Source: Bacillota bacterium (GTDB lineage: Bacteria; Bacillota; Desulfitobacteriia; Desulfitobacteriales; JAJXUE01). Taken from it: DNA of 43,347 nucleotides. Below the pieces are notes generated by a model. It ran no database searches. It had not been told where the DNA came from and saw only the letters and a program-made list of their open reading frames with translations. The stretch covers positions 1 to 43,347 of the forward strand of contig JAJYNB010000108.1 in NCBI GenBank assembly GCA_021786555.1. The letters are read 5' to 3'. A program made the position numbers and the translations under genes. This document shows positions 2 to 42,108 of this stretch, one piece after another. Numbering within the stretch: position 1 is the first letter of the stretch; each line of letters starts with the position of its first letter.

Positions 2-1084
2 CCGATCTTGCCCTATGAAAAGGAAGGCAGTATTAAGGGAACAGTTGTCAAGATTTACGAGGACCTGGATCAGCTGTCAGACGTTATGCAGCAGCTCAAC
101 CGCCTAAACATGCAGCTGAACTACTATAAGGATGAACTGCACAAGCTTAACGGCACCAGCTATACCATTGGCAATATTGTCTGTAACGACGACCGCTTGG
201 CAAAATTAAAAACCCAGGCCCTGCAAGTGGCGCGAAGCAACTCGACGGTGCTGATTACAGGTGAGAGCGGCACCGGCAAGGAATTGTTCGCCCATTCCAT
301 CCACAATGCTTCCCATCGGCGCAAGGAACCCTTCGTTAAGGTCAACTGCTCTGCTATACCGGCGGAGCTTGCCGAATCCGAACTTTTTGGCTATGATGAC
401 GGCGCATTCACCGGAGCGCGCAAGCAAGGCAAAGCCGGCAAATTTGAGCTGGCCAACGGGGGCACTATTTTCCTGGATGAAATCGGCGATATGCCCCTTG
501 CCTTACAAAGCAAACTGCTGCGGGTTATTCAGGAAAAGGAAATAGAAAGAGTAGGTAGTGTCAGGACCAGAAAGATTGACGTCAGAATCATCGCCGCTAC
601 CAACAAAGACTTAAAGCAGCTTGCTGTGGAAGGTAAGTTTAGAGAGGATCTGTATTTCAGATTAAACGTCATTGAGTTAAAGATTCCTCCCTTAAGGGAA
701 CGGAAGGAAGACATACCGGTCCTGGTGCAATCCTTCATCGGAAAATACAACAACCTGTTGTCAAAAAGGATTGCGGGCATCACAAGCGCCGCTTTGGAAG
801 CCCTGATGGAGTACCACTGGCCCGGTAATATCCGGGAGTTGGAAAACGTAATAGAACGGATTCTGAACTATCATGAGAGCGGTTATATCGATGTCCTGGA
901 TTTGCCTGAGGATACGAGATACGGGGAGAAAGCTGCTGTCAAAAAGGGCCGGAGCCTGGCGGCCATTGAGCGTGAAGCCATCCAACTGGCCTTAAACGAA
1001 GCCAAAGGAAACAAGTCTAAAGCGGCAAGACTCTTGGGGATAAGCAGATCGAAGCTATATGAAAAAATCTCCGAGTATCAGTAA
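2..1084 (+). CDS. sigma54-dependent transcriptional activator (enhancer-binding protein), 5'-truncated by the window edge
   Basis: AAA+ Walker A GESGTGKE. The sigma54-contact motif GAFTGA is encoded at nt 401-418. C-terminal Fis-type HTH ([19 protein letters not shown]). The frame is open to the window start, so the sensor domain is missing. Confidence 0.9.
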
Positions 1085-1202: not shown

Positions 1203-1218
1203 TGGCATAGGAATTGCT
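1203..1218 (+). promoter_or_regulatory. sigma54 -24/-12 promoter candidate P1
   Basis: TGGCATaggaaTTGCT has the exact GG-N10-GC spacing of the TGGCAC-N5-TTGCW consensus. It lies downstream of an EBP gene and upstream of the Mo-enzyme operon. Confidence 0.7.
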
Positions 1219-1353: not shown

Positions 1354-1549
1354 AGAAGTATTGGCTGCTGAGGAGGGATGTTAAAGAGGTTTTTGTTGAG
1401 GGAGCAAAATCTGGTGCGGTACCGTCCCAGGGCGCCTTGGGTATCCCCGTCTTGAGCCTGGAGAGCGCCTGTGGGGTCAAAAGCAGAATACAAATTTTTT
1501 GCAAAGGGGGAAAGTAACTGGGGTAACCGATAAACCCAGTGAAGAAATC

Positions 1550-3847
1550 ATGGAAGGTTACAGTGTTATAGGTAAAAGTGTTCCCAGGACAGATGCGTGG
1601 GACAAAGTAATAGGCAGGGCAGTGTACACCGAAGATATCAAACTGCCTAACATGCTTTACGGCAAGATACTGAGAAGTCCCCATGCGCATGCGCGCATCG
1701 TCAGCATCAATACCGAAAAGGCCGAGAAATTGCCCGGTGTCAAAATGGTGATGACCGGGAAGGACATCCTGCCGGTAAAGTATGGCATCGTGCCCTTTGC
1801 TCAGGACGAATACGGCCTGGCGATCGACAAAGTCCGCTACGTTGGAGATGATGTGGCCGCTGTGGCAGCAGTAGACGAAGCCACTGCTGCGGAAGCTTTG
1901 GAACTGATTGAAGTAGTGTACGAACCGCTGCCGGCAGTTTTCACCGTGGAAGATGCCATGAAAGACGGAGCTCCGGAGATCCACGAAGGCCCCAAAGTCA
2001 AGAACAACGTCAGCATCCAATACCGTAAGGAATTTGGCAGCATCGACAAAGGATTTGAAGAGTCCTTTCATATTCGGGAAGACGTTTTTAAGACCCATGG
2101 TCAGTACCATGCTCCGCTGGAACCCCATGCCGCGATTGCCATGTACGAGCCAAGCGGCAAACTCACCCTCTGGTCAAGCACCCAGATCCCCTTTTTCTTG
2201 AGGCACAACCTGGCCAGCACGCTGGGCATAACCGAAGACAGGGTGCGGGTTATCAAGCCGGTTGTGGGCGGCGGTTTCGGTGTGAAGATTGACATGTTCT
2301 CCAAAGACTTTTGTGCCGCTTTTATGTCCATGAAAACGGGCAGACCGGTTAAGATGGTCTATGACAGGGAAGAAGCGCTGACCTGCGTGCGCGGCAGACA
2401 TCCATCCATCGTCAAAGTGCGCACAGGGGTAGCTAAAGACGGCAGAATCATTTCCCAGTACATCGATTTGACCGTGGACGGCGGGGCCTATAACAGTACC
2501 GCTCCCCTGATTATCACCTTGTCAGGCTACTTCGCCATGATTCCTTACAACATTCCAAACCTGGTACTGGACGCCAAACACGTCTACACCAATAAATACG
2601 CTAATGGTGCTATGCGGGGCCACGGCGCTCCCCAGATGCGCTTCGCGGTGGAATCACAAATGGACATTCTGGCCGCGGATCTGGGTATGGACGCGCTGGA
2701 AATCCGCCGCATCAATGCGCTGGAAGCCGGCTGTGACCACCCGGCAAAGATGATTCTGCGCAGCTGCGGCTTCAAAGAGAGCTTAGACTTGGCTGCTAAT
2801 GCCATCGGCTGGAAAGAGAAACGCGGCAAGGGCAATTTCCGGGGTGTAGGCCTGGGTGGTTCCGGTTGGGCTTCCGGAGTAAATAACATGAGCCACATCG
2901 GCGGCGGCGCCGTGGTAAAACTCGAAAAGACCGGCGGCGTAACAGTGCTGACAGGAGCTGCGGACATTGGGCAGGGAGCGGAAAGCGTCATCGCCCAAAT
3001 CGTGGCGGAAGAACTCGGCGTATCCTTCGCGAAAGTAAGGGTCATCGCTGCGGATACCGACGTCTGCCCGCTGGACTCCGGCACCTTTGGCAGCGGCGTT
3101 ACGGTGCGTTCGGGCAAAGCGGCACAGCTGGCGGCCAGGGATATCAAGAAGCAAATCTTAACCGTGGTTGCCAAAAACATTGGAGGCGATCCTGAACATC
3201 TGACCATCAAAGACGACTATATCTGGCAAAACGGCCAGAAGAAGATGGACATCAACAAAGCTGTCAAACTGGTGCAGTATGCGGATATCCAAGTGCCGAT
3301 GATCGGGCGTGGCTATTATCAGCTGCCTGCCAAAGAGCCTACTACCCTCTTGAGGGATAACGGCGACATCTCAGGCTCCTATAGCTTTGGTACCCAGGCT
3401 GCGGAAGTGGAAGTGGACCCCAAATCCGGCCGGGTTAAGATCATCAAGATTGTGACTGCGGATGATGCCGGCAGGGCACTAAACCCGGATCAGGTGGAGG
3501 GCCAGGTCGAAGGAGCGGTAATGACGGGCTTGGGTCATACCTTGTTCGAAGATCCCGACTTCGACATGACCAACGGCCAGGCGCGCAGCACCTCTTTTAC
3601 GGATTACAAACTTCCCACCGCGCTTGACGCCCCTGACCAAGAAGTTATTCACATCGAGACTGACGATCCCGTAGGGCCTTTTGGCGCCAAGGAATGCGGC
3701 GAAGGCGCAACCATCTACACCGCGCCCGCCATCGTAAACGCAATTACAGACGCTATAGGCGTGAGAATCAATGATTTGCCGATTACTCCTGAAAAGATTC
3801 TGCGGGCTCTGGAAGAAAAAAACAATAAAGGGAGGAAGGAAGCATGA
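1550..3847 (+). CDS. Molybdopterin-binding large subunit, xanthine dehydrogenase family (4-hydroxybenzoyl-CoA reductase alpha-like)
   Basis: The N-terminus IGKSVPRTDAWDKVIGRAVYTEDI is typical of the family, and the 765 aa length fits. Start moved to the ATG at 1550 (MEGYSVIGKS); the ORF track start at 1499 is a TTG extension. Followed by FAD and 2Fe-2S subunit genes. Confidence 0.85.
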   Translation: MEGYSVIGKSVPRTDAWDKVIGRAVYTEDIKLPNMLYGKILRSPHAHARIVSINTEKAEKLPGVKMVMTGKDILPVKYGIVPFAQDEYGLAIDKVRYVGDDVAAVAAVDEATAAEALELIEVVYEPLPAVFTVEDAMKDGAPEIHEGPKVKNNVSIQYRKEFGSIDKGFEESFHIREDVFKTHGQYHAPLEPHAAIAMYEPSGKLTLWSSTQIPFFLRHNLASTLGITEDRVRVIKPVVGGGFGVKIDMFSKDFCAAFMSMKTGRPVKMVYDREEALTCVRGRHPSIVKVRTGVAKDGRIISQYIDLTVDGGAYNSTAPLIITLSGYFAMIPYNIPNLVLDAKHVYTNKYANGAMRGHGAPQMRFAVESQMDILAADLGMDALEIRRINALEAGCDHPAKMILRSCGFKESLDLAANAIGWKEKRGKGNFRGVGLGGSGWASGVNNMSHIGGGAVVKLEKTGGVTVLTGAADIGQGAESVIAQIVAEELGVSFAKVRVIAADTDVCPLDSGTFGSGVTVRSGKAAQLAARDIKKQILTVVAKNIGGDPEHLTIKDDYIWQNGQKKMDINKAVKLVQYADIQVPMIGRGYYQLPAKEPTTLLRDNGDISGSYSFGTQAAEVEVDPKSGRVKIIKIVTADDAGRALNPDQVEGQVEGAVMTGLGHTLFEDPDFDMTNGQARSTSFTDYKLPTALDAPDQEVIHIETDDPVGPFGAKECGEGATIYTAPAIVNAITDAIGVRINDLPITPEKILRALEEKNNKGRKEA

Positions 3848-4851
3848 CGCTGCCGGCTTTTGAATACCACCGTCCCAGCACTTTGAGTGAAGGCTTAAAA
3901 CTACTAAAGAATAACGCAGGTAAAACTCGACCCCTGGCCGGCGGAACCGACCTCTTGAACAACATGAAAGTTGGCTTGAACCCGGCGGAAGTTCTGGTAG
4001 ACCTTACTGGCATTGAGAGCCTATCGTCTATCGAATGCGCTGTAAACCAGCCTGTGAAGGTGGGCGCTGCGGCCACTATCTGGGATTTGGTGCAGCGCGC
4101 TGAAGTGAAAGAGAACCTTACCGCCCTTTATCAAGCGGGCTGCGGGGTGGGAGCTATCCAACTGCAGCAAATGGGTACCGTAGGCGGCAACCTCTGCCAG
4201 GACACCCGCTGTTGGTTTTATAACCAAACCAAGCACTGGCGCAGAGCGCGTCCATTATGCTACAAAACCGGCGGGGACCAATGCCTAGCGATGAAGAAGT
4301 CCGAAAGATGCCACGCTGCTTTTTGCAGTGATGTGGCGCCCGCTCTCATCGCTTACGATGCCACCGTCAAGCTGTCTTCGGCAGATGGTGAACGTGAAAT
4401 CTCACTGGCGGATTTTTACACCCGCGATGGCAAAACGTACAACGTTTTGCAAGCGGGAGAAATCCTCAGCGAAATAACGGTCCCAGCCGGCGCTTGGCAG
4501 ACGAAGAGCGCCTATGTTAAGCTGCGTTCCCGCAAGAGTATTGATTTTCCCCAGGCAGGCGTGGCTATTGCAGTGACAGAAGAAGGCGGCAAGTTGACCG
4601 GGGGCAAGCTGGTGCTTACCGCTCTGGGCAGCGGGCCCATGGACATCAAGGGGGCGGGCAACTTGTTTAAGGGGCTCAGCGTAGACAGCCTGGATGTGGA
4701 GAAGATCTCCTCCCTGGCCCGGGAGTGCGCGGCGGCAGCTGCCAACGATGTCCTGCCTGTGGCTAACATGACCTGGCGGCCTGCCTACCGGCGCAGGATG
4801 GTTGAAATCCTCATCGAGGAAAGTCTGAAAAAGATATTTATCAACAAGTAG
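3844..4851 (+). CDS. FAD-binding medium subunit with extra 4-Cys insertion loop (4-hydroxybenzoyl-CoA reductase beta-like)
   Basis: CODH/XDH FAD-binding fold (PLAGGTDL). Insertion CQDTRCWFYNQTKHWRRARPLCYKTGGDQCLAMKKSERCHAAFC. The ATGA overlap with the upstream stop indicates translational coupling. Confidence 0.85.
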   Translation: MTLPAFEYHRPSTLSEGLKLLKNNAGKTRPLAGGTDLLNNMKVGLNPAEVLVDLTGIESLSSIECAVNQPVKVGAAATIWDLVQRAEVKENLTALYQAGCGVGAIQLQQMGTVGGNLCQDTRCWFYNQTKHWRRARPLCYKTGGDQCLAMKKSERCHAAFCSDVAPALIAYDATVKLSSADGEREISLADFYTRDGKTYNVLQAGEILSEITVPAGAWQTKSAYVKLRSRKSIDFPQAGVAIAVTEEGGKLTGGKLVLTALGSGPMDIKGAGNLFKGLSVDSLDVEKISSLARECAAAAANDVLPVANMTWRPAYRRRMVEILIEESLKKIFINK

Positions 4852-4874
4852 CTAAACGAAAAAGGGGTGATATC

Positions 4875-5345
4875 ATGGCCACTAAACAAATAATAGTTTT
4901 AAATGTGAACGGCGACGATCACGAAATACTGGTTAAACCGCAGCAGACTCTGTTAGAGGTTCTGCGCGAGACGTTAGGATTTACCGGGACAAAACAGGGC
5001 TGTAACGAAGGTAGCTGCGGCGCCTGCACTGTACTCGTAAACAACAAGCCCACCCTTGCCTGCTCAACCCTTGCCGTGGCTGCTGTGGGTAAAGAGATAA
5101 TGACTATTGAAGGGTTGGCAGGGCAAGACGGGACTCTTCACCCAATCCAGAAATCTTTCGTGGAAAACGGCGCCATTCAATGCGGGTTCTGCACCCCAGG
5201 TATGGTGATGTCAACCAAAAGCTTGCTGGACAGAAATCCAAACCCCAGTGAAGAGGAAATCAAGGAGGGCCTCTCAGGCAACCTCTGCCGCTGCACCGGC
5301 TATGCCAAGATAATTAAGGCTGTCAAAGCCGTTGCAGCTGGGTAA
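4875..5345 (+). CDS. [2Fe-2S] small subunit of the molybdenum enzyme
   Basis: Plant-type motif CNEGSCGACTV plus second-cluster motif CGFCTPG...CRCTGY. 156 aa. RBS AAAGGGG upstream. Confidence 0.9.
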   Translation: MATKQIIVLNVNGDDHEILVKPQQTLLEVLRETLGFTGTKQGCNEGSCGACTVLVNNKPTLACSTLAVAAVGKEIMTIEGLAGQDGTLHPIQKSFVENGAIQCGFCTPGMVMSTKSLLDRNPNPSEEEIKEGLSGNLCRCTGYAKIIKAVKAVAAG

Positions 5346-5586: not shown

Positions 5587-5602
5587 TGGCATGGTATTTG
5601 CT
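5587..5602 (+). promoter_or_regulatory. sigma54 -24/-12 promoter candidate P2
   Basis: TGGCATggtatTTGCT, about 75 nt upstream of the ATG at 5676. Confidence 0.7.
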
Positions 5603-5675: not shown

Positions 5676-6428
5676 ATGAAATTTAAGGGGAAAGTTTGTA
5701 TTGTTACCGGGGCCTATGCCTGCATAGGCCGCGGCATCGCCTTGGGGTTGGCAAAGCAAGGAGCCAAGGTGGTCGTGGTTGATATCGACAGCGATAATGC
5801 CACAAGCGTTGCCAAAGAGATCGAAGAGCTTGGCACCAGCGCTATGGCCGCCCCGGCAGATATTACCAACAGTACGCAGATCAACGAAATCATCTCTAAG
5901 GCGATAGAGAAGTTTGGCAAAATAGATGTACTGGTGAATAATGTCGGGTGGAATAAGGTACAGCCCTTTGTGAACGGAAATGAAGAGTTTTGGGATAAGG
6001 TTCTAGGTATCAATCTAAAGGGTCCCATCATTTGCTGCCGGGCGGTAATTGACTCCATGATGCAGCAAAATTACGGCAAGATTGTAAACATTGCTTCCGA
6101 TTCAGGCCGCGTGGGTTCTACCGGAGAGGCAGTCTATTCAGCTGCCAAGGGCGGGGTAATCTCCTTTACCAAAACCCTGGCCAGAGAAATGGCCCGCTAC
6201 AAAATCAATGTGAACTGCATTTCACCGGGGCCCAGTGATACACCGTTTTTTGCCGCAGTTTCCGCAGACAATCCCAAGTTGATGGAAGCAGTGAAAAAGG
6301 CTATACCTTGGCGGCGTTTGGGAGAACCGGAAGACATTGCCAATGCGGTCTTGTTCCTGGCCTCGGACGATGCTGATTATATTACAGGCCAGACCTTAAG
6401 CGTCAGCGGCGGCCTTACCATGATGTAA
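5676..6428 (+). CDS. Short-chain dehydrogenase/reductase, 2-hydroxycyclohexanecarboxyl-CoA dehydrogenase (BadH)-like
   Basis: TGAxxxIG Rossmann motif and YSAAK catalytic motif. The stretches IVNIASDSGRVGSTGEAVYSAAKGG and GQTLSVSGGLTMM resemble BadH as I recall it. Start at the ATG at 5676 follows RBS GGGAGGGA. Confidence 0.7.
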   Translation: MKFKGKVCIVTGAYACIGRGIALGLAKQGAKVVVVDIDSDNATSVAKEIEELGTSAMAAPADITNSTQINEIISKAIEKFGKIDVLVNNVGWNKVQPFVNGNEEFWDKVLGINLKGPIICCRAVIDSMMQQNYGKIVNIASDSGRVGSTGEAVYSAAKGGVISFTKTLAREMARYKINVNCISPGPSDTPFFAAVSADNPKLMEAVKKAIPWRRLGEPEDIANAVLFLASDDADYITGQTLSVSGGLTMM

Positions 6429-6459
6429 ACCGGTAAGAAATTTGAGGAGGTTTTACGAT

Positions 6460-7245
6460 ATGAACTACCACGACATCATCTTTGAAAAAAAAGAGGGAGT
6501 TGCCTGGATTACCATCAACCGGCCCCAGGTTTTAAATGTCCTGCGCTTTGAAACTGTGGCCGAAATGACTGCCGCCTTTGAAGACGCTGAAAACGACCCC
6601 ACTGTCGGGGTAGCAGTACTGACTGGCGCAGGGGATAAAGCTTTCTGTGTCGGCGGTGATATCGCGGTCATGAGCGCCTTGAATCATCAGACCGGCCAGC
6701 AGTGGAATAACGCCCTGATGAAGCTCTCCAGCATGATGCGCAACCTGAGCAAGCCCATAATTGCTGCCGTTAACGGTTTTTGTATCGGCGGTGGGAACGA
6801 GCTGAACGTGTTTTGCGACCTGACTATTGCTTCCGCTAAGGCTAAATTCGGCCAAGCCGGGCCAAAGGTGGGGGCTTGCCCGGTGTGGGGCGCCACTCAG
6901 ATGCTGCCCCGGATCATGGGTGAGAAAAAAGCCAGGGAAATGATTTACATGTGTAATCAGTATACGGCGGAAGAAGCCAGGGAGATGGGCTTGGTGAACA
7001 AGGTGGTCCCCCATGATGAGCTTTATTCCGAAGTGCAGAAGTGGTGCGACCAGCTGTTGGATATGAGTCCGCAGTCGCTGAGACTGGCGAAACTTTCCCT
7101 CAATTTCGAATCCGACATGATGTACCCGTCCCTGATGCACGGCTCTGCCTTACTTAGCTATGTTTGGGGTTCCGAGCAGACCACAGAAGGTTTTGCGGCC
7201 TTCAAAGAAAAGAGGAAGCCGGACTTCCGCTCCTTTAGAAAATAA
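6460..7245 (+). CDS. Crotonase-superfamily MenB/BadI-like enzyme (candidate 2-ketocyclohexanecarboxyl-CoA hydrolase type)
   Basis: MenB/BadI hallmark FGQAGPKVG, GAGDKAFCVGGD, and C-terminal FKEKRKPDFRSF. Start at the ATG at 6460 follows RBS GAGGAGG. Confidence 0.7.
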   Translation: MNYHDIIFEKKEGVAWITINRPQVLNVLRFETVAEMTAAFEDAENDPTVGVAVLTGAGDKAFCVGGDIAVMSALNHQTGQQWNNALMKLSSMMRNLSKPIIAAVNGFCIGGGNELNVFCDLTIASAKAKFGQAGPKVGACPVWGATQMLPRIMGEKKAREMIYMCNQYTAEEAREMGLVNKVVPHDELYSEVQKWCDQLLDMSPQSLRLAKLSLNFESDMMYPSLMHGSALLSYVWGSEQTTEGFAAFKEKRKPDFRSFRK

Positions 7246-7275
7246 GGCCTGGCCGCAAAGAGGGGGTTTACAAGT

Positions 7276-8703
7276 ATGAAAACATCCGCTGACTACCGTC
7301 AGCGAATCAAAGCGATGCGGCCTAACGTGTATATGGGCGGCAAGGTGGTAGGCCGGGACCATCCGGATTTTGCACCGGGCATCAACACTTTGGCCTTGAC
7401 CTATGACCTGGTTGACTCACCCGAATACGCTGACCTGTTAACGGCCAAGTCCCATCTCACAGGCGAGAAAATAAACCGCTTTACCCATATACACCAGTCG
7501 GCCGATGATTTGCTGAAAAAACAGGAGCTAACCCGCCATTTGTGTTTGAAGTGCGGCCGCTGCATTCAACGCTGCATGGGAATAGACGCCATGAACGCCC
7601 TGTCGGTGGTGACCAAAGACACCGACGTGGCGAAAGGCACGGAATACCACCGGCGTTTCCTGGAGTATCTTAGATTCTTTCAGGAAAATGATTTGGTAGG
7701 AAACGCTGCCCAGACCGACGTGAAAGGGGACCGCAGTTTACGGCCCCATCAACAAGCTGATCCGGACCTCTACCTCAGGGTGGTACAGAGGAGACAGGAC
7801 GGCATCGTGGTGCGAGGGGCCAAGGCCCATAATTCCATTGCGGCTTACGCCGACGAATTACTGGTTATCCCTACCAGGGCCATGACCAAGGAAGAAGGGG
7901 ACTGGGCTGTAGCCTTTGCGATTCAGGCTGACGTCCCCGGAGTTAAACTGATCAGCCTGCCCCACATCCACCGCAAGCGTAAAGAACTCAAGGCTCCCAT
8001 CGAGGACTACGGCACTATGCATGCCTTTACAGTGTTTGATGACGTCTTTGTTCCCTGGGAGCGGGTGTTTATGGACGGTGAGACCGAATTTGCCGGCCAA
8101 CTTGCATCCCTGTTTGCCACCTTCCACCGCCACAGCTATACTGGGTGCAAGCCCGCCATGTCCGACATCTTTCTGGGCGCTGCCGCTCTGGTGGCCGAGT
8201 ATAACGGAGTAGGCAAAGCCTCCCACGTACGGGACAAACTGGCCGACCTGATTGCGGTTGGAGAGCTGGTATACGGCGCAGGAATAGCCGCCTCAGTCAA
8301 GGGGACACGCTCCGCTTCCGGTACTTATATGCCTGATGTTGTGTTCACCAACGTCGGCCGCTATCACGCCGGGGTCAACATCTATCACGAATTTGAAACC
8401 CTGGCGGATGTGGCCGGGGGCCTGGCGGCTACTCTGCCTCTGGAAGAAGATTTTAACAACCCCGAGACCAGGGAACTGCTGGAAAAATACATCATGCGCA
8501 AGGCCGACGTCCCGGCAGAATACCAGCACCGCTTGTACCGTCTGATAGAAAATCTCATAGCCTCCTCCACCGGCGCTGCCACTGGGATCAGCGGTATCCA
8601 CGGCGGAGGTTCCCCTGTGATGGAGAAGATTGCCATCATGGGCAAATATGACCTCGAAGCACGCAAACGGGTCATCAAATACCTGGCCGGCATACCGGAG
8701 TAG
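7276..8703 (+). CDS. 4-hydroxybutyryl-CoA dehydratase / vinylacetyl-CoA isomerase family (AbfD-like) Fe-S flavoenzyme
   Basis: CIQRC (Cys96/Cys100) and FHRHSYTGC (His284/Cys291) match the spacing of the AbfD cluster ligands C99, C103, H292, C299 as I recall them. 475 aa. Confidence 0.75.
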   Translation: MKTSADYRQRIKAMRPNVYMGGKVVGRDHPDFAPGINTLALTYDLVDSPEYADLLTAKSHLTGEKINRFTHIHQSADDLLKKQELTRHLCLKCGRCIQRCMGIDAMNALSVVTKDTDVAKGTEYHRRFLEYLRFFQENDLVGNAAQTDVKGDRSLRPHQQADPDLYLRVVQRRQDGIVVRGAKAHNSIAAYADELLVIPTRAMTKEEGDWAVAFAIQADVPGVKLISLPHIHRKRKELKAPIEDYGTMHAFTVFDDVFVPWERVFMDGETEFAGQLASLFATFHRHSYTGCKPAMSDIFLGAAALVAEYNGVGKASHVRDKLADLIAVGELVYGAGIAASVKGTRSASGTYMPDVVFTNVGRYHAGVNIYHEFETLADVAGGLAATLPLEEDFNNPETRELLEKYIMRKADVPAEYQHRLYRLIENLIASSTGAATGISGIHGGGSPVMEKIAIMGKYDLEARKRVIKYLAGIPE

Positions 8704-8798: not shown

Positions 8799-10160
8799 TT
8801 GGTTAACGACAATTTTTTAGGCCGGTTTGAGTTCGGTGAATACTGGAATCCCATGAATGAAACCATGCCGCGTGAGCAGTTGGAAAAGCTGCAGCTGGCC
8901 AAGCTGCAAAGAATCGTAAGTTATGCCTACGAAAAGAGTGCTTTTCACCGCCGAAAGTTTGAAGCAGCGGGATTTCATCCCGATCAACTTCACAGCCTGG
9001 CAGATTTGGACCGCATTCCCTTTACCACCAAAGATGAGTGGCTGGAGGAGCAAAAGCGTTATCCCATGTTCGGGGAAATGCTGACCGCACCACAGGAACT
9101 GGCAACGAGGTATCATGCCACTTCAGGGACATCGGGCAGGACGCCGCTCAGGGTGCTGGACGGGCGTAAGGATTGGCAGTGGGCGGCGGAGATGTGGGCC
9201 TACAGCCTTTATGCCTTTGGCATCCGCTCCCATGACATAGTCTATTACGCCTTCGGGTACGGTTCCTTCATCGGGTTCTGGGGGTCGCACTATGGGTCTG
9301 AAAAGATTGGCGCTCTGACCATAGCCAGCGGGGGGATGTCCACTGAGGCAAGGGTGAAACAGCTGATAGAACTGGGTGCAACCACTCTGTGTGCCACGCC
9401 CACCTATGTCCTGAGAATGGCCCAGGTGGCAAGAGACATGGGTATCGATGTTGCCAGGGAATCCAAGATTAACAAGGTTGTGGTAACCGGGGAACCTGGC
9501 GGCAACGTCCCGGCGACCAGAAAAATGATTGCCGAGAGTTGGGGCGCCGAGGTGTCGGACATTGTGGGAATGACCGAGTCTGGATCCTGCTTCGCTTTTG
9601 AATGCAGGCATCATCCGGGCGGGACGCACATCATGGAGGACCATGTACTGGAGGAAACCTTGGATCCGAAGACCGGTGAACGCCTGGGTTACGGTGAGCG
9701 CGGTGAAAGGATTTTCACTTCCTTTGGCAGGGGCTTCATACCGCTGATTCGTTTCCGCACGGGGGACTTGGTGGTTCGAGTTCCGGGCAGCACCTGCACC
9801 TGCGGCAGGACATGGGATATCTACCAGGGCGGCATTCTGGGCCGGGTGGATGATATGAAGTTAATCCGCGGCACCAATGTGTACCCCTCATCCATTGAGG
9901 CAGTTGTGAGAAAATTCGAAGAAGTGGACGAGTTCCAGATTGTGATAACCCGGGAGAACGGCATAATGGATGAAATTACGGTAGAAATTGAGCTTTCACG
10001 CGAAGCGGAAGAACGGTTCACTGTTGTGTCTGTGCAACTGGCCAAAGACCTGGCCGACGCCCACGAGAACCTGCGCTTCAACATCACACAGGCCGATTGC
10101 GGCTCGCTTCCCCGTTATGAATTAAAGGCACGCAGAATGAAAGACTTGAGGGGGATATAA
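8799..10160 (+). CDS. Phenylacetate-CoA ligase family (PaaK-type aryl-acetate-CoA ligase)
   Basis: N-terminus YWNPMNETMPREQLEKLQLAKLQRIV, P-loop-like TSGTSGRTP, 453 aa. TTG start follows RBS AAGGAGGGG. Confidence 0.8.
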   Translation: MVNDNFLGRFEFGEYWNPMNETMPREQLEKLQLAKLQRIVSYAYEKSAFHRRKFEAAGFHPDQLHSLADLDRIPFTTKDEWLEEQKRYPMFGEMLTAPQELATRYHATSGTSGRTPLRVLDGRKDWQWAAEMWAYSLYAFGIRSHDIVYYAFGYGSFIGFWGSHYGSEKIGALTIASGGMSTEARVKQLIELGATTLCATPTYVLRMAQVARDMGIDVARESKINKVVVTGEPGGNVPATRKMIAESWGAEVSDIVGMTESGSCFAFECRHHPGGTHIMEDHVLEETLDPKTGERLGYGERGERIFTSFGRGFIPLIRFRTGDLVVRVPGSTCTCGRTWDIYQGGILGRVDDMKLIRGTNVYPSSIEAVVRKFEEVDEFQIVITRENGIMDEITVEIELSREAEERFTVVSVQLAKDLADAHENLRFNITQADCGSLPRYELKARRMKDLRGI

Positions 10161-10162
10161 GA

Positions 10163-10417
10163 GTGAACCTTACGTCAGCAAGTAAAAGCAGCGAAGACCT
10201 GAACTCAGCGGAGAACAAACTGAACCTGTTGGGACAACTGCTTAGCGAGGATGAACAAACTCTGTGGCTCATCTACCGGGAACTCAAAAATCTGGCGGGC
10301 AATGCCAAGCTGCCTCCCTGCGCTCTGAGCAACATTCGGGCCGCCCTGGCGTCTATCTGGCAGGTAACAAATGACTTAGACATTGAATTTGAACAATTGT
10401 ACGAGGTTGGAGTCTGA
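10163..10417 (+). CDS. Small hypothetical protein (84 aa), predicted helical
   Basis: GTG start 2 nt after the ligase stop, with GAGGGGGA 7 nt upstream. Tightly packed between two operon genes. No recognisable motif. Confidence 0.4.
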   Translation: MNLTSASKSSEDLNSAENKLNLLGQLLSEDEQTLWLIYRELKNLAGNAKLPPCALSNIRAALASIWQVTNDLDIEFEQLYEVGV

Positions 10418-10429
10418 GGGGGTTAAACC

Positions 10430-11215
10430 ATGGTTAGGAGCAGTGAATTTGTTACATGCGAAATAACTGATGGGGCTGCCGTGGTTAGAATCGACCGTCC
10501 TCCCGTCAACGCATTGAGTTTACAGGTTTTGCAAGAGTTAAGAGGAATTTTCACAGACCTCGCTGCCCTACCCCAGGTGCTGGTGGTAATTATCACCGGG
10601 GCAGGGGAAAAGATATTTGTGGCCGGGGCGGACATCGACGGCCTAAAAGAACTCACGCCCGAGACCGGCAAAACAGTAAACGGTATGTATCAGCTTACCT
10701 TTAACCAGATTGCAGATTTCCACCGGCCTGTTATTTGTGCTGTTAACGGCCTGGCTTTGGGCGGGGGCGCTGAGCTGGCCCTGGCTTGTGACATCCGCAT
10801 CGCAGCTGAACACTCAAGTTTTAGCTGGCCTGAGGTCAATCTGGGCCTGATCCCGGCCGGCGGCGGCACCCAAAGGCTGGGGCGCCAGATTTCCATGGCC
10901 AAGGCCAAAGAGCTGATTTTTACCGGCCGTCGACTGACAGCAGTGGAAGCGGAAAGTATCGGACTGATCAACCAGGTAGTTCCTCAGGGTGAGGCCCTCT
11001 CCGCTGCCAAAGAGATGGCACGACTAATCGCAGCCAAAGGCCCGGTGGCTGTAGCCCAGGCTAAGAAAGCCATGAACCAGGGCCTTGAACTGCCCCTGCA
11101 AGAAGGGTTTGCGTTGGAACTCGAACTCAGCGCCGCCTGCTTCGGTACCCAAGATGCCAAGGAAGGAATCAGCGCTTTCTTTGGAAAGAGAACTCCCGAG
11201 TTTAAAGGAGTGTGA
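10430..11215 (+). CDS. Enoyl-CoA hydratase (crotonase)
   Basis: GAGEKIFVAGADI, GGGAELALACD and WPEVNLGLIPAGGGTQRL, so both catalytic Glu positions are present. RBS GAGGGGG. Confidence 0.85.
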   Translation: MVRSSEFVTCEITDGAAVVRIDRPPVNALSLQVLQELRGIFTDLAALPQVLVVIITGAGEKIFVAGADIDGLKELTPETGKTVNGMYQLTFNQIADFHRPVICAVNGLALGGGAELALACDIRIAAEHSSFSWPEVNLGLIPAGGGTQRLGRQISMAKAKELIFTGRRLTAVEAESIGLINQVVPQGEALSAAKEMARLIAAKGPVAVAQAKKAMNQGLELPLQEGFALELELSAACFGTQDAKEGISAFFGKRTPEFKGV

Positions 11216-11386: not shown

Positions 11387-11587
11387 ATGGCGGAAAAGTA
11401 TCAAAACCTTGTCTTAGAAAAGAACGCAGGAATTCTGCTTGTCACTATCAACCGTCCGGAAGTGAGAAATGCCCTTGATTGGCGGACCTGGGAGGAAATC
11501 GGGGAACTGGCCCGGGACATCAACCGGGACGACTCGCTCAAGGTAGTAATTATCACCAAGTTTTCAGGGCAAATAGCGTTGAGATGA
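11387..11587 (+). pseudogene. Truncated enoyl-CoA hydratase remnant (N-terminal 57 residues only)
   Basis: ILLVTINRPEVRNALD...LKVVIIT is a normal crotonase N-terminus. It then diverges to KFSGQIALR-stop where GAGxKAFxAGAD is expected. Confidence 0.6.
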
Positions 11588-12615
11588 CCGGAGTGATGAA
11601 GTTGGGAAGTGCGGCGAGAACAACGGACAAGACACCTGCCCTGGGGACAGCGGGCCAGTATCTGGACCGTGCAGCCCAGGAGGCGGGAGACCTGCCGGCG
11701 TTAACCTTTGCAGACCAAACCCTAAGTTACCGCGAATTGGCCGCAAAAGTAGATGCCCTGGCTGTATCCCTGATTGAACTTGGTATAAAACACGGTGACA
11801 GAGCAGTAATCTTGATGCCAAACTGGCACCAATTTATCGTCGCCAGTCAGGCTGTGCTGAAGATAGGAGCTATCAAGATTCCGCTGCCAATCGATGTTAC
11901 CCCCTCAGAAATCGCCGGCGCTCTAAAACAGAGCGGAGCGAAGGCGATCATTATGATTTCGGAATGGAACGGCCTCTCCCTTGCCAGGGAACTCGATAAC
12001 ATGCGCAGCAAGCTGCCGAATCTCAAGTTTGTGATGGTAGTAGGGCAGACTTTTGCCGACATGATTCCTCTGCGCCAGCTTGTCCGACATACTTTGCCGG
12101 GCCAGGAGGTGTTCGAGAGGTACTTCCGGGACAACCCGGTAAAGCCGGATGACTTGGCCTGCATCACTTATTCCCGCGGTACTGAGAGTATCAGAAGTGT
12201 GTTATACACCCATAAAAGCATCTATGGCTTTGCGTCTGCCTGTAATAACCTGGGCAAGGTTGGCGAAGAGGACATATGGCTTGATATTCTGCCATTAGCT
12301 TCAAGCTTGGGACTGCAATATGTGGAGCCATGCCCGGTAATGAGCAACTCATCTGCTGTATTATTGGAAAGTTTTGAGCCGGCGCAGGCTTTAAGCTTGA
12401 TCGAAAAGCACCAGGTTACAGCTCTGGTCGCTGTGCCTTCAGTAATCAGTGATTTATTGGAGAGTAACCAGCTGAAAGAATTTGATCTGTCCTCCCTGCG
12501 CAAGGTTTTTTTGGCTGGCTCTGTGCACGCCAAGGAGTTGACACGTAGAATCAGGGAAAACATCGGAGGAGATGTCATCACCCTTGATGCCCCTGGGAAG
12601 ATGCAAAAATTTTAA
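11584..12615 (+). pseudogene. Truncated and degenerate AMP-dependent acyl-CoA ligase (N-terminal domain only)
   Basis: Ligase-like N-terminal region (ALTFADQTLSYRELA). The P-loop has degenerated to YSRGTESIRS versus YTGGTTGFPKG in the intact paralog at 20772. It ends after about 343 aa, before the YGxTE motif, and no C-terminal domain appears in any frame. Confidence 0.55.
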
Positions 12616-24853: not shown

Positions 24854-24895
24854 TTAATCTGACTGAAAGATATTAGATTGGTGGAGGTGTCTGCT

Positions 24896-26869
24896 GTGAC
24901 AAAGCCAGGTGAGAAAAAACTTGCTCACTTATTTCAACCGGGCAAAATAGGGAAATTTGAGACCAAGAACAGGGTAAAGTATGGGGCGTGCTGCGTGTCC
25001 AACTACAACACAAGGGACGGCTTCATCACGGAAAGGGAACTGGCGCGCACCAAGGTAATTGCCGGGACAGGGTCTGGTATCATTACAAACCAGGGGGCAT
25101 ATCCGGATCCCAAGGGTGAAGGCAAGGCCTATTTCCGCCAGATAGCATTGTTTGACGACAAGTTTATGCCCCAATTCGAAAAGATTGCCGGGTATATTCA
25201 TGACAACGGCGGTGTGGCTATTCAACAGATACTCCATGCTGGGCGCTATGGCGGGATTGACCTGGGGTACTGCATCCAGCCTTCAGTGGTTCCCCAGACT
25301 TTGCCTCATTTCCGTCCGCCCCGGGAGGTAAGCAAAGAGGATATCAGACAAATGGTAAAGGAACACGCCGAGGCCGCCAGAAGGGCTGTCAGAGCGGGCT
25401 TCGACGGAGTGGAAATCACCAGTTTTATGGGGTATTTGCTGGCGAACTTTAATTCCAAGTTTACCAACCAACGCACCGATGAGTATGGCGGTTCGGTGGA
25501 AAACAGGGGCCGCTTCATGCGGGAACTGATTTATGCCATCAAGGATTCTATCGGGGAGGAGCACCCCCTGGTAGTCCGCCTGAACGGAGCGGAGCTTATG
25601 GACCGCTGGGGCGGAAACAGCGAGGACGAGTGTTTCGAACTGATGCAGATGGCCGGGAAGAGCGGTCTGGACATGATCAGCGTCACGGTAGGCTGGCAGG
25701 AGGCACCCGTTTCTTCCATTGGGCGTGATGTGCCCCCCGGGCACTGGAACCGTCTGGCGGCACGGGCCAAAAAACTGCTGCCCGATATACCTATCGCCTT
25801 CGGTGTAAGGCTGCCGGATCCGGTCATGGCTAACGAGTGCATTGAAAAAGGGGATTTTGATTTCTGGGAGGTCTGCCGCCCTCTCCTGGCCGACCCGGAA
25901 CTGGTACGCAAAGCTGCGGAGGACCGCCTGGATGAAGTAAGGCCCTGCCTGGGTGACATGCTCTGCCTCTCCCGGCTGTTCCGCGACCTGCCTTATCTCT
26001 GCACCTGCAACCCTGCCCTGGGCCATGAGGTGGAGCCTGAGTACCACATCAAGCCGGCAGCGGTAAAAAAGAAAATCATGGTGATAGGGGCAGGCCCGGC
26101 GGGAATGGAGTTTGCAATCAACGCTGTTAAACGAGGTCATGAGGTGACGATTTTCGAAAAGGGAGATAGCTTGGGTGGGAATCTTGCGTCCTACGCCGCC
26201 CATGACCTGGCCAATCCGGAAGACCTGCAGAAACTGCTGGCCCAGTACAAGAAGATGGTTGAAAAGCTCGGCATTGAGGTCCGGTTGAACACGGAAGTTA
26301 ACCCTAAACTTATGCGCAGTATCCTGCATAAGTTCGATGTGGCCGTAGTTGCGACCGGGGCCAGAATTGACCTGGGAGGGGTTCCGGCGGCAGAACAGCA
26401 AGGTCTGGTAATCAGCGCTCTGGACGCGGCCGCGGGAAATGCCCGGCTTGGCAGCAAGGTAGTGGTGCTGGGCGGCGGCAAAATAGGGCTGGTGCTGGCC
26501 GAGTTCCTCAAGACCAAAGGGGTGGATGTGACCATTGTCGAAAAAGCAAAACGGATTGGGGAAGATGTGATTCCAGCCTGGAAGTGGCGCCATACTTCCT
26601 GGGTCGGCGGTTTGAAGATTCCGGTCCTTACCGGCAGCGGTGCGCAAAAAATTGCAGGTGAAGGGGTTACGGTTATCAACGAAAAGGGCGAAGAAAGCTT
26701 CGTTGCTGCAGACACAGTGATAGCCGCCGCGCCGAGAAAATCGAACCAGGAACTGGCCCAGGAACTGGAGTTTATGGTAGATGAACTGCACATGATCGGG
26801 GACGCAGTTTCTCCCCGGGGCTTGTACCAGGCAATCCACGAGGGCTACCGCCTGGGGATGCGGATTTAG
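24896..26869 (+). CDS. FadH/OYE-family FMN + Fe-S + FAD/NAD(P) oxidoreductase (2,4-dienoyl-CoA reductase / enoate reductase type)
   Basis: OYE-like TIM-barrel motifs (ILHAGRYG, MGYLLANFNSKFTNQRTDEYGGSVENRGRF), a Cys cluster at aa 357-377, and two GxGxxG folds (VIGAGPAG, VLGGGKIG). The GTG start at 24896 follows RBS GGAGGTG. Confidence 0.8.
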   Translation: MTKPGEKKLAHLFQPGKIGKFETKNRVKYGACCVSNYNTRDGFITERELARTKVIAGTGSGIITNQGAYPDPKGEGKAYFRQIALFDDKFMPQFEKIAGYIHDNGGVAIQQILHAGRYGGIDLGYCIQPSVVPQTLPHFRPPREVSKEDIRQMVKEHAEAARRAVRAGFDGVEITSFMGYLLANFNSKFTNQRTDEYGGSVENRGRFMRELIYAIKDSIGEEHPLVVRLNGAELMDRWGGNSEDECFELMQMAGKSGLDMISVTVGWQEAPVSSIGRDVPPGHWNRLAARAKKLLPDIPIAFGVRLPDPVMANECIEKGDFDFWEVCRPLLADPELVRKAAEDRLDEVRPCLGDMLCLSRLFRDLPYLCTCNPALGHEVEPEYHIKPAAVKKKIMVIGAGPAGMEFAINAVKRGHEVTIFEKGDSLGGNLASYAAHDLANPEDLQKLLAQYKKMVEKLGIEVRLNTEVNPKLMRSILHKFDVAVVATGARIDLGGVPAAEQQGLVISALDAAAGNARLGSKVVVLGGGKIGLVLAEFLKTKGVDVTIVEKAKRIGEDVIPAWKWRHTSWVGGLKIPVLTGSGAQKIAGEGVTVINEKGEESFVAADTVIAAAPRKSNQELAQELEFMVDELHMIGDAVSPRGLYQAIHEGYRLGMRI

Positions 26870-35044: not shown

Positions 35045-35093
35045 GACTCCGGCGCATTTAGTGGAAGCTGAGAAGTTTGAGGGAGCGGGCATA

Positions 35094-36878: not shown

Positions 36879-37484
36879 GTGTTGAATATTGTTATCAGCG
36901 GTGTAGGGGGGCAGGGCACGTTATTGGCAGCCAGGGCTATCGCCGAGGCTGCAATCTGCAAAGGTTTTGAGGTGAGGACCTCTGAAACCATCGGCATGGC
37001 CCAGCGGGAGGGCTCGGTGGTCAGTCATGTAAGGCTCGGCCATAATCTCAACGGCGCCCTAATACCGGACCACAAGGCGGACATTCTCTTGGGGTTTGAA
37101 CTGGCCGAAACTGTAAGAGCAATAGGCAAGCTCAAACCCGGAGGAGTAATCATCTCCAATACCCACCGGATAATGCCGGTGAGCGTCTCCTTGGGGAGTG
37201 CCGGCTATCGGAGTGACAAAATGATTTCCAGCCTGGCACAGGCAACTGACCGGCTGATTTTGCTGGATGCCACGCAAGCGGCCTCGAAGGCCGGCGGCTA
37301 CAAAAGCGCTAACGTAGTTCTGCTGGGAGTGCTTTCCGGGTTGCCTGAACTGCCCTTTCATCCTGCTGACCTTTGGCAAGCCATCATGCAGCACGTTTCA
37401 CCCCGCACCAGGCAGATCAATCAGGCGGCCTTTGAACTTGGGCAACGGATAATCGCTGAAAACAGAAACACTGTTTCCGGTTAG
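36879..37484 (+). CDS. iorB: Indolepyruvate:ferredoxin oxidoreductase beta subunit
   Basis: N-terminus ISGVGGQGTLLAARAI, 201 aa, directly after iorA. Confidence 0.85.
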   Translation: MLNIVISGVGGQGTLLAARAIAEAAICKGFEVRTSETIGMAQREGSVVSHVRLGHNLNGALIPDHKADILLGFELAETVRAIGKLKPGGVIISNTHRIMPVSVSLGSAGYRSDKMISSLAQATDRLILLDATQAASKAGGYKSANVVLLGVLSGLPELPFHPADLWQAIMQHVSPRTRQINQAAFELGQRIIAENRNTVSG

Positions 37485-39765: not shown

Positions 39766-39791
39766 TCACAACAGGAAGAGAGGAGATGTAT

Positions 39792-40685: not shown

Positions 40686-40687
40686 AC

Positions 40688-42053: not shown

Positions 42054-42108
42054 AGAAATTCTGTGGAAGAGTAGTTGCTAACTGGATAGAGAAAGGAGTG
42101 GTTTGAGG

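Follow-up and report, generated by a model that had tools for sequence, protein, structure and literature searches.

The DNA analysed here, referred to as the window, is the 43,347-nt contig JAJYNB010000108.1 of a Bacillota genome (assembly GCA_021786555.1), and the subject of this study is a plus-strand operon whose third gene encodes a relative of AbfD, the 4-hydroxybutyryl-coenzyme A (CoA) dehydratase. Behind a sigma-54 promoter (P2), genes for a short-chain dehydrogenase/reductase (SDR), for a crotonase that we call crotonase-X and for the AbfD-like protein follow one another with gaps of 31 and 30 nt, and no intrinsic terminator was detected on the plus strand between them. Three genes spaced 30–31 nt apart behind P2 are what an earlier note on this DNA, made from its letters, had described, and this arrangement was confirmed. 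Past the AbfD-like gene the operon appears to continue with a PaaK-type acyl-CoA ligase, an 84-codon open reading frame (ORF) and an enoyl-CoA hydratase (ECH). The -24/-12 pattern occurs three times in the window (at 1203, 5587 and 24838), against 0.22 occurrences expected from shuffled sequences, and was also found ahead of related gene modules in loci L004, L009, L054, L092, L096, L102 and L103. What is new here is that a known fold and cluster site are combined with a changed catalytic set, and that the crotonase-X and AbfD-like genes form a conserved pair in an uncharacterised operon.

When compared with solved structures, the AbfD-like protein matched AbfD (1U8V; E = 7e-115) and the Nitrosopumilus maritimus enzyme (6VJR; 9e-108), with approximately 45% identity, while the best match to an HpaB oxygenase reached 7e-42 only. 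An AlphaFold2 model (predicted local distance difference test, pLDDT, 93.2) was superposed on 1U8V by Foldseek with a TM-score of 0.94 and a root-mean-square deviation of 2.3 Å. In the alignment with 1U8V, residues Cys96, Cys100, His284 and Cys291 occupy the positions of the AbfD cluster ligands Cys99, Cys103, His292 and Cys299, at the codons where the earlier note had placed them. None of the four varies among the 120 nearest homologues (120/120) or among the clade members obtained from genome contigs (84/84), the latter drawn from at least 14 phyla.

Most database names would have the protein be an HpaB-type flavin monooxygenase ('4-hydroxyphenylacetate 3-hydroxylase family', 'aromatic ring hydroxylase'), and the Pfam domains HpaB_N and HpaB are indeed found in it (1e-94 and 1e-62). 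Nevertheless, it stays below the cut-offs of the HpaB monooxygenase models TIGR02309 (163 of 480 bits) and TIGR02310 (64 of 885 bits), HpaB structures match it far worse than AbfD does, the Fe-S ligands show no variation, the host organisms are strict anaerobes and its place in the tree described below is inside the Cys-Cys-His-Cys clade; the probability of an oxygenase is, in our judgement, negligible. In agreement with the earlier note, the comparisons of sequence and modelled fold support the assignment of the gene product as an Fe-S protein of the AbfD family rather than an HpaB oxygenase, and it is predicted to be an oxygen-sensitive [4Fe-4S]/FAD enzyme. Its two N-terminal ligand cysteines stand in a ferredoxin-like CxxCxxCxxxC spacing (Cys90, Cys93, Cys96 and Cys100; nt 7543–7575). 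A second, ferredoxin-like cluster site at this motif was considered and rejected: Cys90 is a typical residue of the clade (115/120), whereas just 13 of the 120 homologues have Cys93, and given this rarity the motif is probably accidental.

A maximum-likelihood tree was inferred from 117 sequences, comprising superfamily representatives, selected close homologues, AbfD and the Nitrosopumilus enzyme, with Thermus HpaB as the outgroup. Both proven 4-hydroxybutyryl-CoA dehydratases fell into one clade (Shimodaira–Hasegawa-like approximate likelihood ratio test, SH-aLRT, 99%) and the window protein into a separate one, clade Q, of 26–28 rows (SH-aLRT 96–98%). Hence, the grouping with enzymes of 4-hydroxybutyrate fermentation, which the earlier note had named as counter-evidence to its own proposal, did not occur. 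In the homologue search, 7,998 of 8,000 scored candidates had E < 1e-30. The sister clade spans Bacillota, Chloroflexota, Actinomycetota, Thermodesulfobacteriota, Bathyarchaeia, Hadarchaeota and many Asgard archaea, and is very large, distinct and uncharacterised. Some databases name clade members 4-hydroxybutyryl-CoA dehydratase, and others use the HpaB-type names quoted above.

The active site was then compared position by position. A preprint on the Nitrosopumilus structure, with reference to Zhang et al. 2015, gives Thr190, Glu257, Tyr296 and Glu455 as the four non-ligand residues important for AbfD dehydratase activity, and mentions the proposal that protonation of the flavin semiquinone is due to Thr190 and Glu257 (10.1101/2020.02.05.935528). 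At positions 190, 257, 296, 455 and 460 the proven enzymes carry Thr-Glu-Tyr-Glu-Ala and the window protein carries Ser187, His249, Tyr288, Ser439 and Gly444; the local alignment has no gaps at either glutamate, and conserved motifs (VFDxVFxP and HGxGSP) flank the two sites. Zhang et al. reportedly proposed that Glu455 deprotonates Tyr296 and so starts the radical. At this position the 120 nearest homologues have Ala (77), Ser (40) or Gly (3) and never an acid, and an acid is likewise never found among the 84 genome-derived members. Position 460 is Gly in every sequence of both sets (120/120 and 84/84), and position 466, Gln in AbfD, is the Glu450 of the window protein in 120/120 and 83/84. 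At position 257, Asp (53), His (42) and Glu (25) share the nearest homologues, and the genome-derived members have mostly Asp or Glu, with His confined to a subclade of Bacillota. The equivalents of Tyr296, Lys300 and Arg90 are invariant and that of Gln101 is nearly so, with Thr190 replaced by Ser in the window protein.

The protein has thus retained the cluster site and some of the proton relay, and Glu455, the mutation of which reportedly inactivates AbfD, is gone from the whole clade. Since both Glu455 and Glu257 are replaced in the window protein, AbfD chemistry is plausible for it but not assured, and AbfD-like radical generation is unproven. With regard to the AbfD chemistry claimed in the earlier note, family and ligands thus hold good, whereas the reaction itself is not to be assumed. 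It is possible, though unproven, that Glu450 is a relocated base making up for Glu455.

The near subclade of the window protein (74–87% identity) has the signature Ser187/His249/Ser439. The source genome holds a second AbfD-like copy with the same signature and 87% identity (G000:C325:2051-3226, L002), which breaks off where its contig ends and has a different hydratase and SDR behind it. A third family member in this genome (G000:C215:505-1926, L003) has 40% identity and belongs to another subfamily, with the signature RCYC..E.H.C. Neither of them is a canonical AbfD.

These results also bear on whether the gene encodes an ordinary 4-hydroxybutyryl-CoA dehydratase, used in the fermentation of 4-aminobutyrate, succinate or 4-hydroxybutyrate or in the 4-hydroxybutyrate carbon-fixation cycle. 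That would agree with the identity of approximately 45% to AbfD and 6VJR, with the retention of all ligands and with the name used by some sources. However, the tree does not place the protein in the well-supported clade that contains the proven enzymes, other residues stand in for Glu455 and Glu257, and its partners are crotonase-X, an SDR and hydratases under a sigma-54 regulon of the aromatic/acid type. Further, among the scanned window ORFs (four apparent ATP-binding cassette (ABC) transporter ORFs and some shorter ORFs were left unscanned) there was no AbfT-type CoA-transferase (acetyl-CoA hydrolase/transferase family) and no recognisable gene for a 4-hydroxybutyrate or succinate-semialdehyde dehydrogenase; the two-subunit CoA-transferase present in the window is unrelated to the AbfT type. 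We regard an ordinary dehydratase as highly improbable.

The two genes upstream of the AbfD-like gene had been described as BadH- and BadI-like, labels that reflect best-scoring family resemblances well below the curated cut-offs; BadH is a 2-hydroxycyclohexanecarboxyl-CoA dehydrogenase, BadI a 2-ketocyclohexanecarboxyl-CoA hydrolase and MenB, which also enters the comparison, a 1,4-dihydroxy-2-naphthoyl-CoA synthase. TIGR03206 (BadH) was the best NCBIfam match of the SDR, but with 281.2 bits against a cut-off of 431.2, and generic SDR subfamily models were passed; the SDR, which has orthologues of 76–80% identity in L004, L092 and L102, is a candidate for the keto-reductase or alcohol dehydrogenase of the pathway. 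Crotonase-X scored 270.6 bits with TIGR03210 (BadI), against a cut-off of 467.6, and 262.5 of 380 with MenB, so that the two were practically tied. A Ser/Asp/Tyr active-site triad is said, following Eberhard and Gerlt in 2004, to be common to BadI and MenB. Relative to Escherichia coli MenB, Asp163 is replaced by Pro, Tyr97 is deleted and Val136 is replaced by Glu in the window crotonase and in 120 of 120 nearest homologues; in the window crotonase, Ser161 is also replaced by Ala and Tyr258 by Trp. This invariant Glu is at the position of the first catalytic glutamate of ordinary enoyl-CoA hydratases, and the position of the second is Gly, as in MenB. A profile search of 401 Bacillota genomes gave nothing above the BadI cut-off. 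Crotonase-X represents a separate and uncharacterised subfamily of the MenB/BadI clade. C–C bonds are cleaved by some crotonases with a single Glu, among them hydroxycinnamoyl-CoA hydratase-lyase, and by analogy a C–C-cleaving role for crotonase-X is plausible.

The crotonase-X and AbfD-like genes recur as a pair in about nine loci, with 74–85% identity of the AbfD-like protein: in the window, in four Desulfosporosinus-type loci (L004/L010, L009, L054 and L092) and in L089, L090, L096 and L103. Crotonase-X orthologues of 65–85% identity adjoin AbfD-like genes in L004, L089, L090, L092, L096 and L103, and a metagenome scan with crotonase-X returned four loci only. In Desulfosporosinus nitroreducens, D. 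lacus, D. sp. SRJS8 and a metagenome contig, the order is a sigma-54 enhancer-binding protein (EBP), two ECH genes, SDR (76%), crotonase-X (70%), 3-hydroxyacyl-CoA dehydrogenase (3HCDH) and AbfD-like (84%). L089 and L090 have crotonase-X (83% and 65%), 3HCDH, AbfD-like, ECH, a ligase (L089 only) and SDR. The module of genome G032 consists of a ligase, an Old Yellow Enzyme homologue (OYE), crotonase-X, 3HCDH and AbfD-like, and the full operon of L103, with a divergent EBP gene and a -24/-12 promoter, adds to the same five genes ECH, SDR, a major facilitator superfamily (MFS) transporter and a thiolase. An OYE gene lies directly upstream of the crotonase gene in L096, L103 and, as a weak partial match, L090. 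The second hydratase of the window (ECH2) is another recurrent partner, with orthologues of 62–69% identity in L004, L088 and L092.

In the relatives, a 3HCDH gene separates crotonase-X from the AbfD-like gene; in L004 and L089 the stop of this 3HCDH gene overlaps with the start of the AbfD-like gene, and a 3HCDH gene is also directly upstream of the AbfD-like gene in L088 and L008. In L102, where crotonase-X has 85% identity, the contig breaks off within the 3HCDH gene and does not reach the position of the AbfD-like gene. In the window only 30 nt separate the two genes, the 3HCDH gene is missing and a different one lies far off. The window version appears to have lost the intervening 3HCDH and to have acquired the PaaK-type ligase and the 84-codon ORF. 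Of the gene triad to which the earlier note had drawn attention, the crotonase/AbfD-like coupling is therefore kept in other genomes, but with a 3HCDH gene in between.

In a sample of 112 genomes from the class, a crotonase-X orthologue (at least 66% identity) was found in five, and in all five an AbfD-like gene of at least 76% identity lies within 2 kb. Genome G073, the closest sequenced relative, of the same genus and 99% complete, has neither gene. Co-occurrence in 5 of 112 genomes together with the gap in G073 indicates that the pair is an accessory, co-inherited unit, and the module was probably acquired horizontally. In the wider clade, a universal partner was sought by clustering same-strand neighbours in 78 loci, and no family was present in more than seven; 20 of the 44 loci of at least 15 kb have at least one beta-oxidation gene within 10 kb.

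No acyl-CoA dehydrogenase gene was called in L004, L089, L090 or L103, and the operon and the scanned ORFs of the window likewise yielded none. Crotonase-X is accompanied by an ordinary acyl-CoA dehydrogenase, with no AbfD-like gene, in L093 (459–1406; a high-GC metagenome contig) and in L104 (10068–11234; Neobacillus sp. YX16), which suggests that the AbfD-like protein and the acyl-CoA dehydrogenase fill the same pathway slot, the former in anaerobes and the latter in aerobes.

Table 1. Features of the window (nt positions of the whole stretch).
Feature	Position	Strand	Basis or remark
C-terminal part (AAA+ and helix-turn-helix, HTH) of sigma-54 EBP	8–1084	+	Pfam Sigma54_activat, AAA_lid_14, HTH_8; contig starts here
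P1, sigma-54 -24/-12 promoter ahead of the HcrABC-like genes	1203–1218	+	TGGCATAGGAATTGCT
Molybdenum enzyme like 4-hydroxybenzoyl-CoA reductase	1499–5345	+	NCBIfam; Mo 1499–3847, FAD 3844–4851, 2Fe-2S 4875–5345
P2, sigma-54 -24/-12 promoter of the operon under study	5587–5602	+	TGGCATGGTATTTGCT
SDR oxidoreductase	5676–6428	+	Pfam adh_short_C2; BadH-like by family resemblance only
Crotonase-X	6460–7245	+	ATG start behind GAGGAGG ribosome-binding site
AbfD-family [4Fe-4S]/FAD protein, 475 aa (predicted)	7276–8703	+	1U8V match, tree placement, AlphaFold2 model
Codons Cys96 and Cys100 (AbfD Cys99 and Cys103), cluster ligands	7561–7575	+	alignment
Codon His249 (AbfD Glu257 position)	8020–8022	+	gap-free local alignment
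Codons His284 to Cys291 (AbfD His292 and Cys299)	8125–8148	+	alignment; Tyr288 (Tyr296) between
Codon Lys292 (AbfD Lys300)	8149–8151	+	alignment; directly after the Cys291 codon
Codon Ser439 (AbfD Glu455 position)	8590–8592	+	gap-free alignment up to the HGxGSP motif
Codon Glu450 (AbfD Gln466)	8623–8625	+	clade-specific invariant glutamate
PaaK-type acyl-CoA ligase, same operon	8799–10160	+	Pfam AMP-binding_C_2; TIGR02155 293/646 bits
84-aa ORF between ligase and hydratase	10163–10417	+	no Pfam match
Ordinary enoyl-CoA hydratase (ECH2)	10430–11215	+	Pfam ECH_1
Truncated AMP-binding ligase	11479–12615		
FadH-type OYE	24878–26869		under the third -24/-12 promoter
Indolepyruvate-type 2-oxoacid:ferredoxin oxidoreductase pair	35061–37484		
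3HCDH, different from that of the relatives	38589–39578		
Two-subunit CoA-transferase	39786–41467		
Methylmalonyl-CoA-mutase-like gene	42103–43347		runs off the contig

Upstream of the operon (Table 1), the contig starts inside an EBP gene, relatives of which (77–80% identity) adjoin related modules in Desulfosporosinus (L004) and in G032 (L095). The molybdenum enzyme that follows under P1 resembles 4-hydroxybenzoyl-CoA reductase (Hcr), with TIGR03194, TIGR03195 and TIGR03193 among the best matches of its subunits, all below cut-offs. G032 has orthologues of the three subunits (86%, 71% and 81% identity) on a separate contig from its crotonase-X/AbfD-like module, where an EBP (80%), the HcrABC-like genes, a PaaK-type ligase (40%) and a tripartite ATP-independent periplasmic (TRAP) transporter form one unit (L095, G032:C58, 5767–16881). 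None of the Desulfosporosinus genomes with the module has Hcr-like orthologues. As a constant module partner the Hcr-like unit was rejected on account of this separation in G032 and its absence from Desulfosporosinus; the enzyme is co-regulated local context, outside the core module. Judged by these gene orders, the window looks like a fusion of an EBP-Hcr-ligase-TRAP unit with the crotonase-X/AbfD-like module.

Further genes were recorded around the operon. The nearest solved structures to the PaaK-type ligase are 2-hydroxyisobutyryl-CoA synthetase and phenylacetate-CoA ligases. Downstream of ECH2 lies a truncated AMP-binding ligase, of which a full-length counterpart with 49% identity heads a related module (L102:148-1758); it fits a decayed remnant of the module's own ligase. 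A FadH-type OYE follows under the third -24/-12 promoter. At its far end the window carries an indolepyruvate-type 2-oxoacid:ferredoxin oxidoreductase pair, the two-subunit CoA-transferase and a methylmalonyl-CoA-mutase-like gene, which suggest that the island contains additional modules for acid fermentation. When the genome from which the window comes was searched for Oah and class I benzoyl-CoA reductase, nothing scored above the cut-offs, and three AOR-family genes were found there.

The patchwork character of the window, with its truncated ligase and second molybdenum enzyme, would agree with a mosaic neighbourhood in which the three genes became adjacent by accident of island assembly and share no pathway, as would the separate location of the Hcr-like unit in G032 and the lack of a universal partner in the wider clade. 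Chance adjacency is, however, very unlikely in our estimation: crotonase-X and the AbfD-like gene are paired in about nine loci, the sigma-54 promoter is conserved as well, and wherever the crotonase orthologue occurs in the class sample, an AbfD-like gene with at least 76% identity is next to it.

The analysis demonstrates that the protein belongs to the AbfD family, that its ligands are conserved, that its clade is a separate one and that its gene has a conserved partner. Building on these results, we propose, with about an even chance of being right, that the AbfD-like enzyme makes a 2-enoyl-CoA from a gamma-hydroxyacyl-CoA and replaces the acyl-CoA dehydrogenase step in a sigma-54-controlled, beta-oxidation-like module. 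Because the modules contain a ligase, an ene-reductase, SDR, the AbfD-like protein, hydratase, 3HCDH and a putatively C–C-cleaving crotonase or thiolase and no acyl-CoA dehydrogenase, a redox-neutral formation of the 2-enoyl-CoA is the simplest reading. From gene context we infer the reaction, the order of steps and the substrate, as follows. The ligase would form the CoA ester and, in the relatives, the OYE ene-reductase would saturate an enone; the SDR would then reduce a gamma-oxo to a gamma-hydroxy group. The AbfD-like enzyme would eliminate water to give the 2-enoyl-CoA, including the shift from 3-enoyl to 2-enoyl and with no net oxidation. An enoyl-CoA hydratase followed by a 3-hydroxyacyl-CoA dehydrogenase (or the SDR) would yield the 3-oxoacyl-CoA, and the C–C bond would finally be cleaved by the crotonase of the MenB/BadI clade or by a thiolase.

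Several points weigh against this proposal. Glu455 is lost in every clade member examined and Glu257 is His in the window protein, and a literature search, incomplete in coverage, turned up no assayed member of the clade. The C–C-cleaving role of crotonase-X is putative. The window module is without the 3HCDH and OYE of its relatives and sits with Hcr-like and PaaK-like genes, and the local pathway may differ. Finally, the context of L093 and L104 could mean that the AbfD-like protein performs redox chemistry on a saturated substrate.

The loss of Glu455 throughout the clade would also be expected of an enzyme that had given up radical dehydration and kept only the shift from 3-enoyl-CoA to 2-enoyl-CoA, acting after an ene-reductase or dienoyl-CoA reductase, for example on cyclohex-2-ene-1-carboxyl-CoA to give cyclohex-1-ene-1-carboxyl-CoA, in analogy to the vinylacetyl-CoA delta-isomerase activity of AbfD. 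The isomerase activity of AbfD is said, from the Buckel laboratory, to outlast the loss of its dehydratase activity, and the OYE genes upstream of the crotonase in L090, L096 and L103 and the FadH-type OYE in the window are in line with such a role. Even so, the four ligands, Tyr296, Lys300 and a Thr190/Glu257-type pair are strictly conserved, which is hard to explain for a simple proton shift, and such shifts are normally the work of crotonase-family isomerases, in a module that already has several crotonases. We consider a pure isomerase fairly unlikely.

Alternatively, the protein might be a redox enzyme, an oxygen-independent acyl-CoA dehydrogenase or enoyl-CoA reductase in which FAD does the chemistry and the cluster passes electrons to or from ferredoxin, and which would take the place of the missing acyl-CoA dehydrogenase on a saturated substrate. 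The modules without acyl-CoA dehydrogenase, the partnership of crotonase-X with an ordinary acyl-CoA dehydrogenase and no AbfD-like gene in L093 and L104, and a fold related to acyl-CoA dehydrogenases (ranks 42–50 of the structural search) speak for it. On the other hand, the AbfD Glu455 position, which we take to be that of the catalytic base of acyl-CoA dehydrogenases, is precisely the one where the residue is missing; the cluster of AbfD acts as a Lewis acid that binds the substrate, and the His among its ligands does not vary in the clade; and no electron-transfer flavoprotein (ETF) or dedicated ferredoxin genes are conserved beside the near-clade modules. A redox function seems to us unlikely.

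For the proposed gamma-dehydration, the position of the hydroxyl group on a ring can be specified. Counting from the thioester carbonyl, ring C1 is the alpha, C2 the beta and C3 the gamma carbon. The gamma carbon of cyclohexanecarboxyl-CoA being ring C3, a ring substrate would be 3-hydroxylated and not, as the earlier note had suggested, 4-hydroxylated; its other suggestion, an open-chain acyl-CoA, fits about as well as a ring. As a tentative first version, the substrate would be an alicyclic acid with oxygen at C3, for instance 3-oxo- or 3-hydroxy-cyclohexane-1-carboxyl-CoA, or else 4-hydroxypimelyl-CoA. The ring form would be converted from 3-hydroxycyclohexane-1-carboxyl-CoA to cyclohex-1-ene-1-carboxyl-CoA, and the ring-opened form from 4-hydroxypimelyl-CoA to 2,3-dehydropimelyl-CoA. 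This version fits in that it would give every conserved gene a job, with crotonase-X as the ring hydrolase, and it suits meta-oxygenated acids; speculatively, para-dehydroxylation by the Hcr-like enzyme of the window could yield a meta-hydroxy aryl-CoA.

An open-chain gamma-oxo or gamma-hydroxy acid (levulinate-like, or derived from gamma-lactones) fits as the second version, in which the module would be an anaerobic counterpart of the levulinate/4-hydroxy-acid route; it accommodates all genes except crotonase-X. This version is favoured by the genes for an AbfT-family CoA-transferase and an Amidohydro_2 protein that stand beside the module in Desulfosporosinus, under a second -24/-12 promoter. 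In D. nitroreducens, the module is directly followed by genes for 3-deoxy-D-arabino-heptulosonate 7-phosphate (DAHP) synthase, prephenate dehydrogenase and 5-enolpyruvylshikimate-3-phosphate (EPSP) synthase (L004:12087-15379), which may be a coincidence or a hint of hydroaromatic, shikimate-type acids.

A bolder and still doubtful extension is that the radical enzyme, though devoid of Glu455, removes the secondary gamma-hydroxyl from the ring or from 4-hydroxypimelyl-CoA, and that the single-Glu crotonase then cleaves the skeleton. If true, this would be a dehydrogenase-free route for meta-oxygenated alicyclic and aromatic acids in strict anaerobes, with a new start of ketyl-radical chemistry in which Glu450 or His249 stands in for Glu455 and Glu257. 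To our knowledge, AbfD belongs to a very small group of enzymes that initiate radical chemistry with no need of S-adenosylmethionine, B12 or ATP, and only a C4 substrate is known for it.

Irrespective of the substrate, the pairing with crotonase-X in a sigma-54 operon is a testable candidate for a route of gamma-oxygenated acids into beta-oxidation in strict anaerobes, and since cultured Desulfosporosinus strains carry the module it is open to experiment. The names given to clade members, whether 4-hydroxybutyryl-CoA dehydratase or aromatic ring hydroxylase, may mislead pathway calls from metagenomes, including claims of carbon fixation, and the use of members from Asgard archaea, Bathyarchaeia, Chloroflexota and Desulfobacterota as 'abfD' markers of 4-hydroxybutyrate pathways may be unsafe. 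The earlier note had held its proposed role to be absent from the classical benzoyl-CoA pathways; in agreement with this, we found no paper describing such a role, and in our literature search, of incomplete coverage, AbfD-type enzymes were nowhere described together with crotonase or BadH/BadI-type partners.

With respect to known systems, the window protein shares with AbfD (1U8V) and Nmar_0207 (6VJR) the fold, approximately 45% identity, the four ligands, the equivalents of Tyr296, Lys300, Arg90 and Gln101 and a length of approximately 475–490 residues. It differs from them in having Ser for Glu455, His for Glu257, Gly for Ala460, Ser for Thr190 and Glu450 for Gln466, and in its context of crotonase-X, SDR, hydratase and ligase genes under sigma-54 control in place of 4-hydroxybutyrate genes; unlike the window, the Desulfosporosinus module does adjoin an AbfT-family transferase. 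The operon brings together an enoyl-CoA hydratase, an SDR and a crotonase of the MenB/BadI clade, as does the BadK/BadH/BadI set of the benzoate and cyclohexanecarboxylate pathway of Rhodopseudomonas palustris, in which BadK is the hydratase, but the window proteins score far below the equivalog cut-offs, no AliB-type acyl-CoA dehydrogenase is present and the AbfD-like enzyme is added. The Hcr-like unit has the Mo, FAD and 2Fe-2S subunits of HcrABC/HbaBCD, whereas all three of its subunits are below the equivalog cut-offs and it does not accompany the module constantly.

A parallel in logic to the proposed reaction comes from the catabolism of levulinate and 4-hydroxy acids in aerobes and mammals. 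The lva system has an SDR and a sigma-54 regulator. Gamma-hydroxyacyl-CoAs need a dedicated enzyme to enter beta-oxidation, LvaABC in Pseudomonas putida and ACAD10/11 in mammals; both systems phosphorylate the hydroxyl group and eliminate the phosphate on a protein of the acyl-CoA dehydrogenase type, and the lva operon includes an acyl-CoA synthetase (10.1101/2024.01.09.574893). The conversion of a 4-hydroxyacyl-CoA to a 2-enoyl-CoA without net redox change would be common to these systems and to the module proposed here, by analogy and not by homology. In contrast to them, the window module has no kinase, and an Fe-S/FAD protein of the AbfD type would carry out the step.

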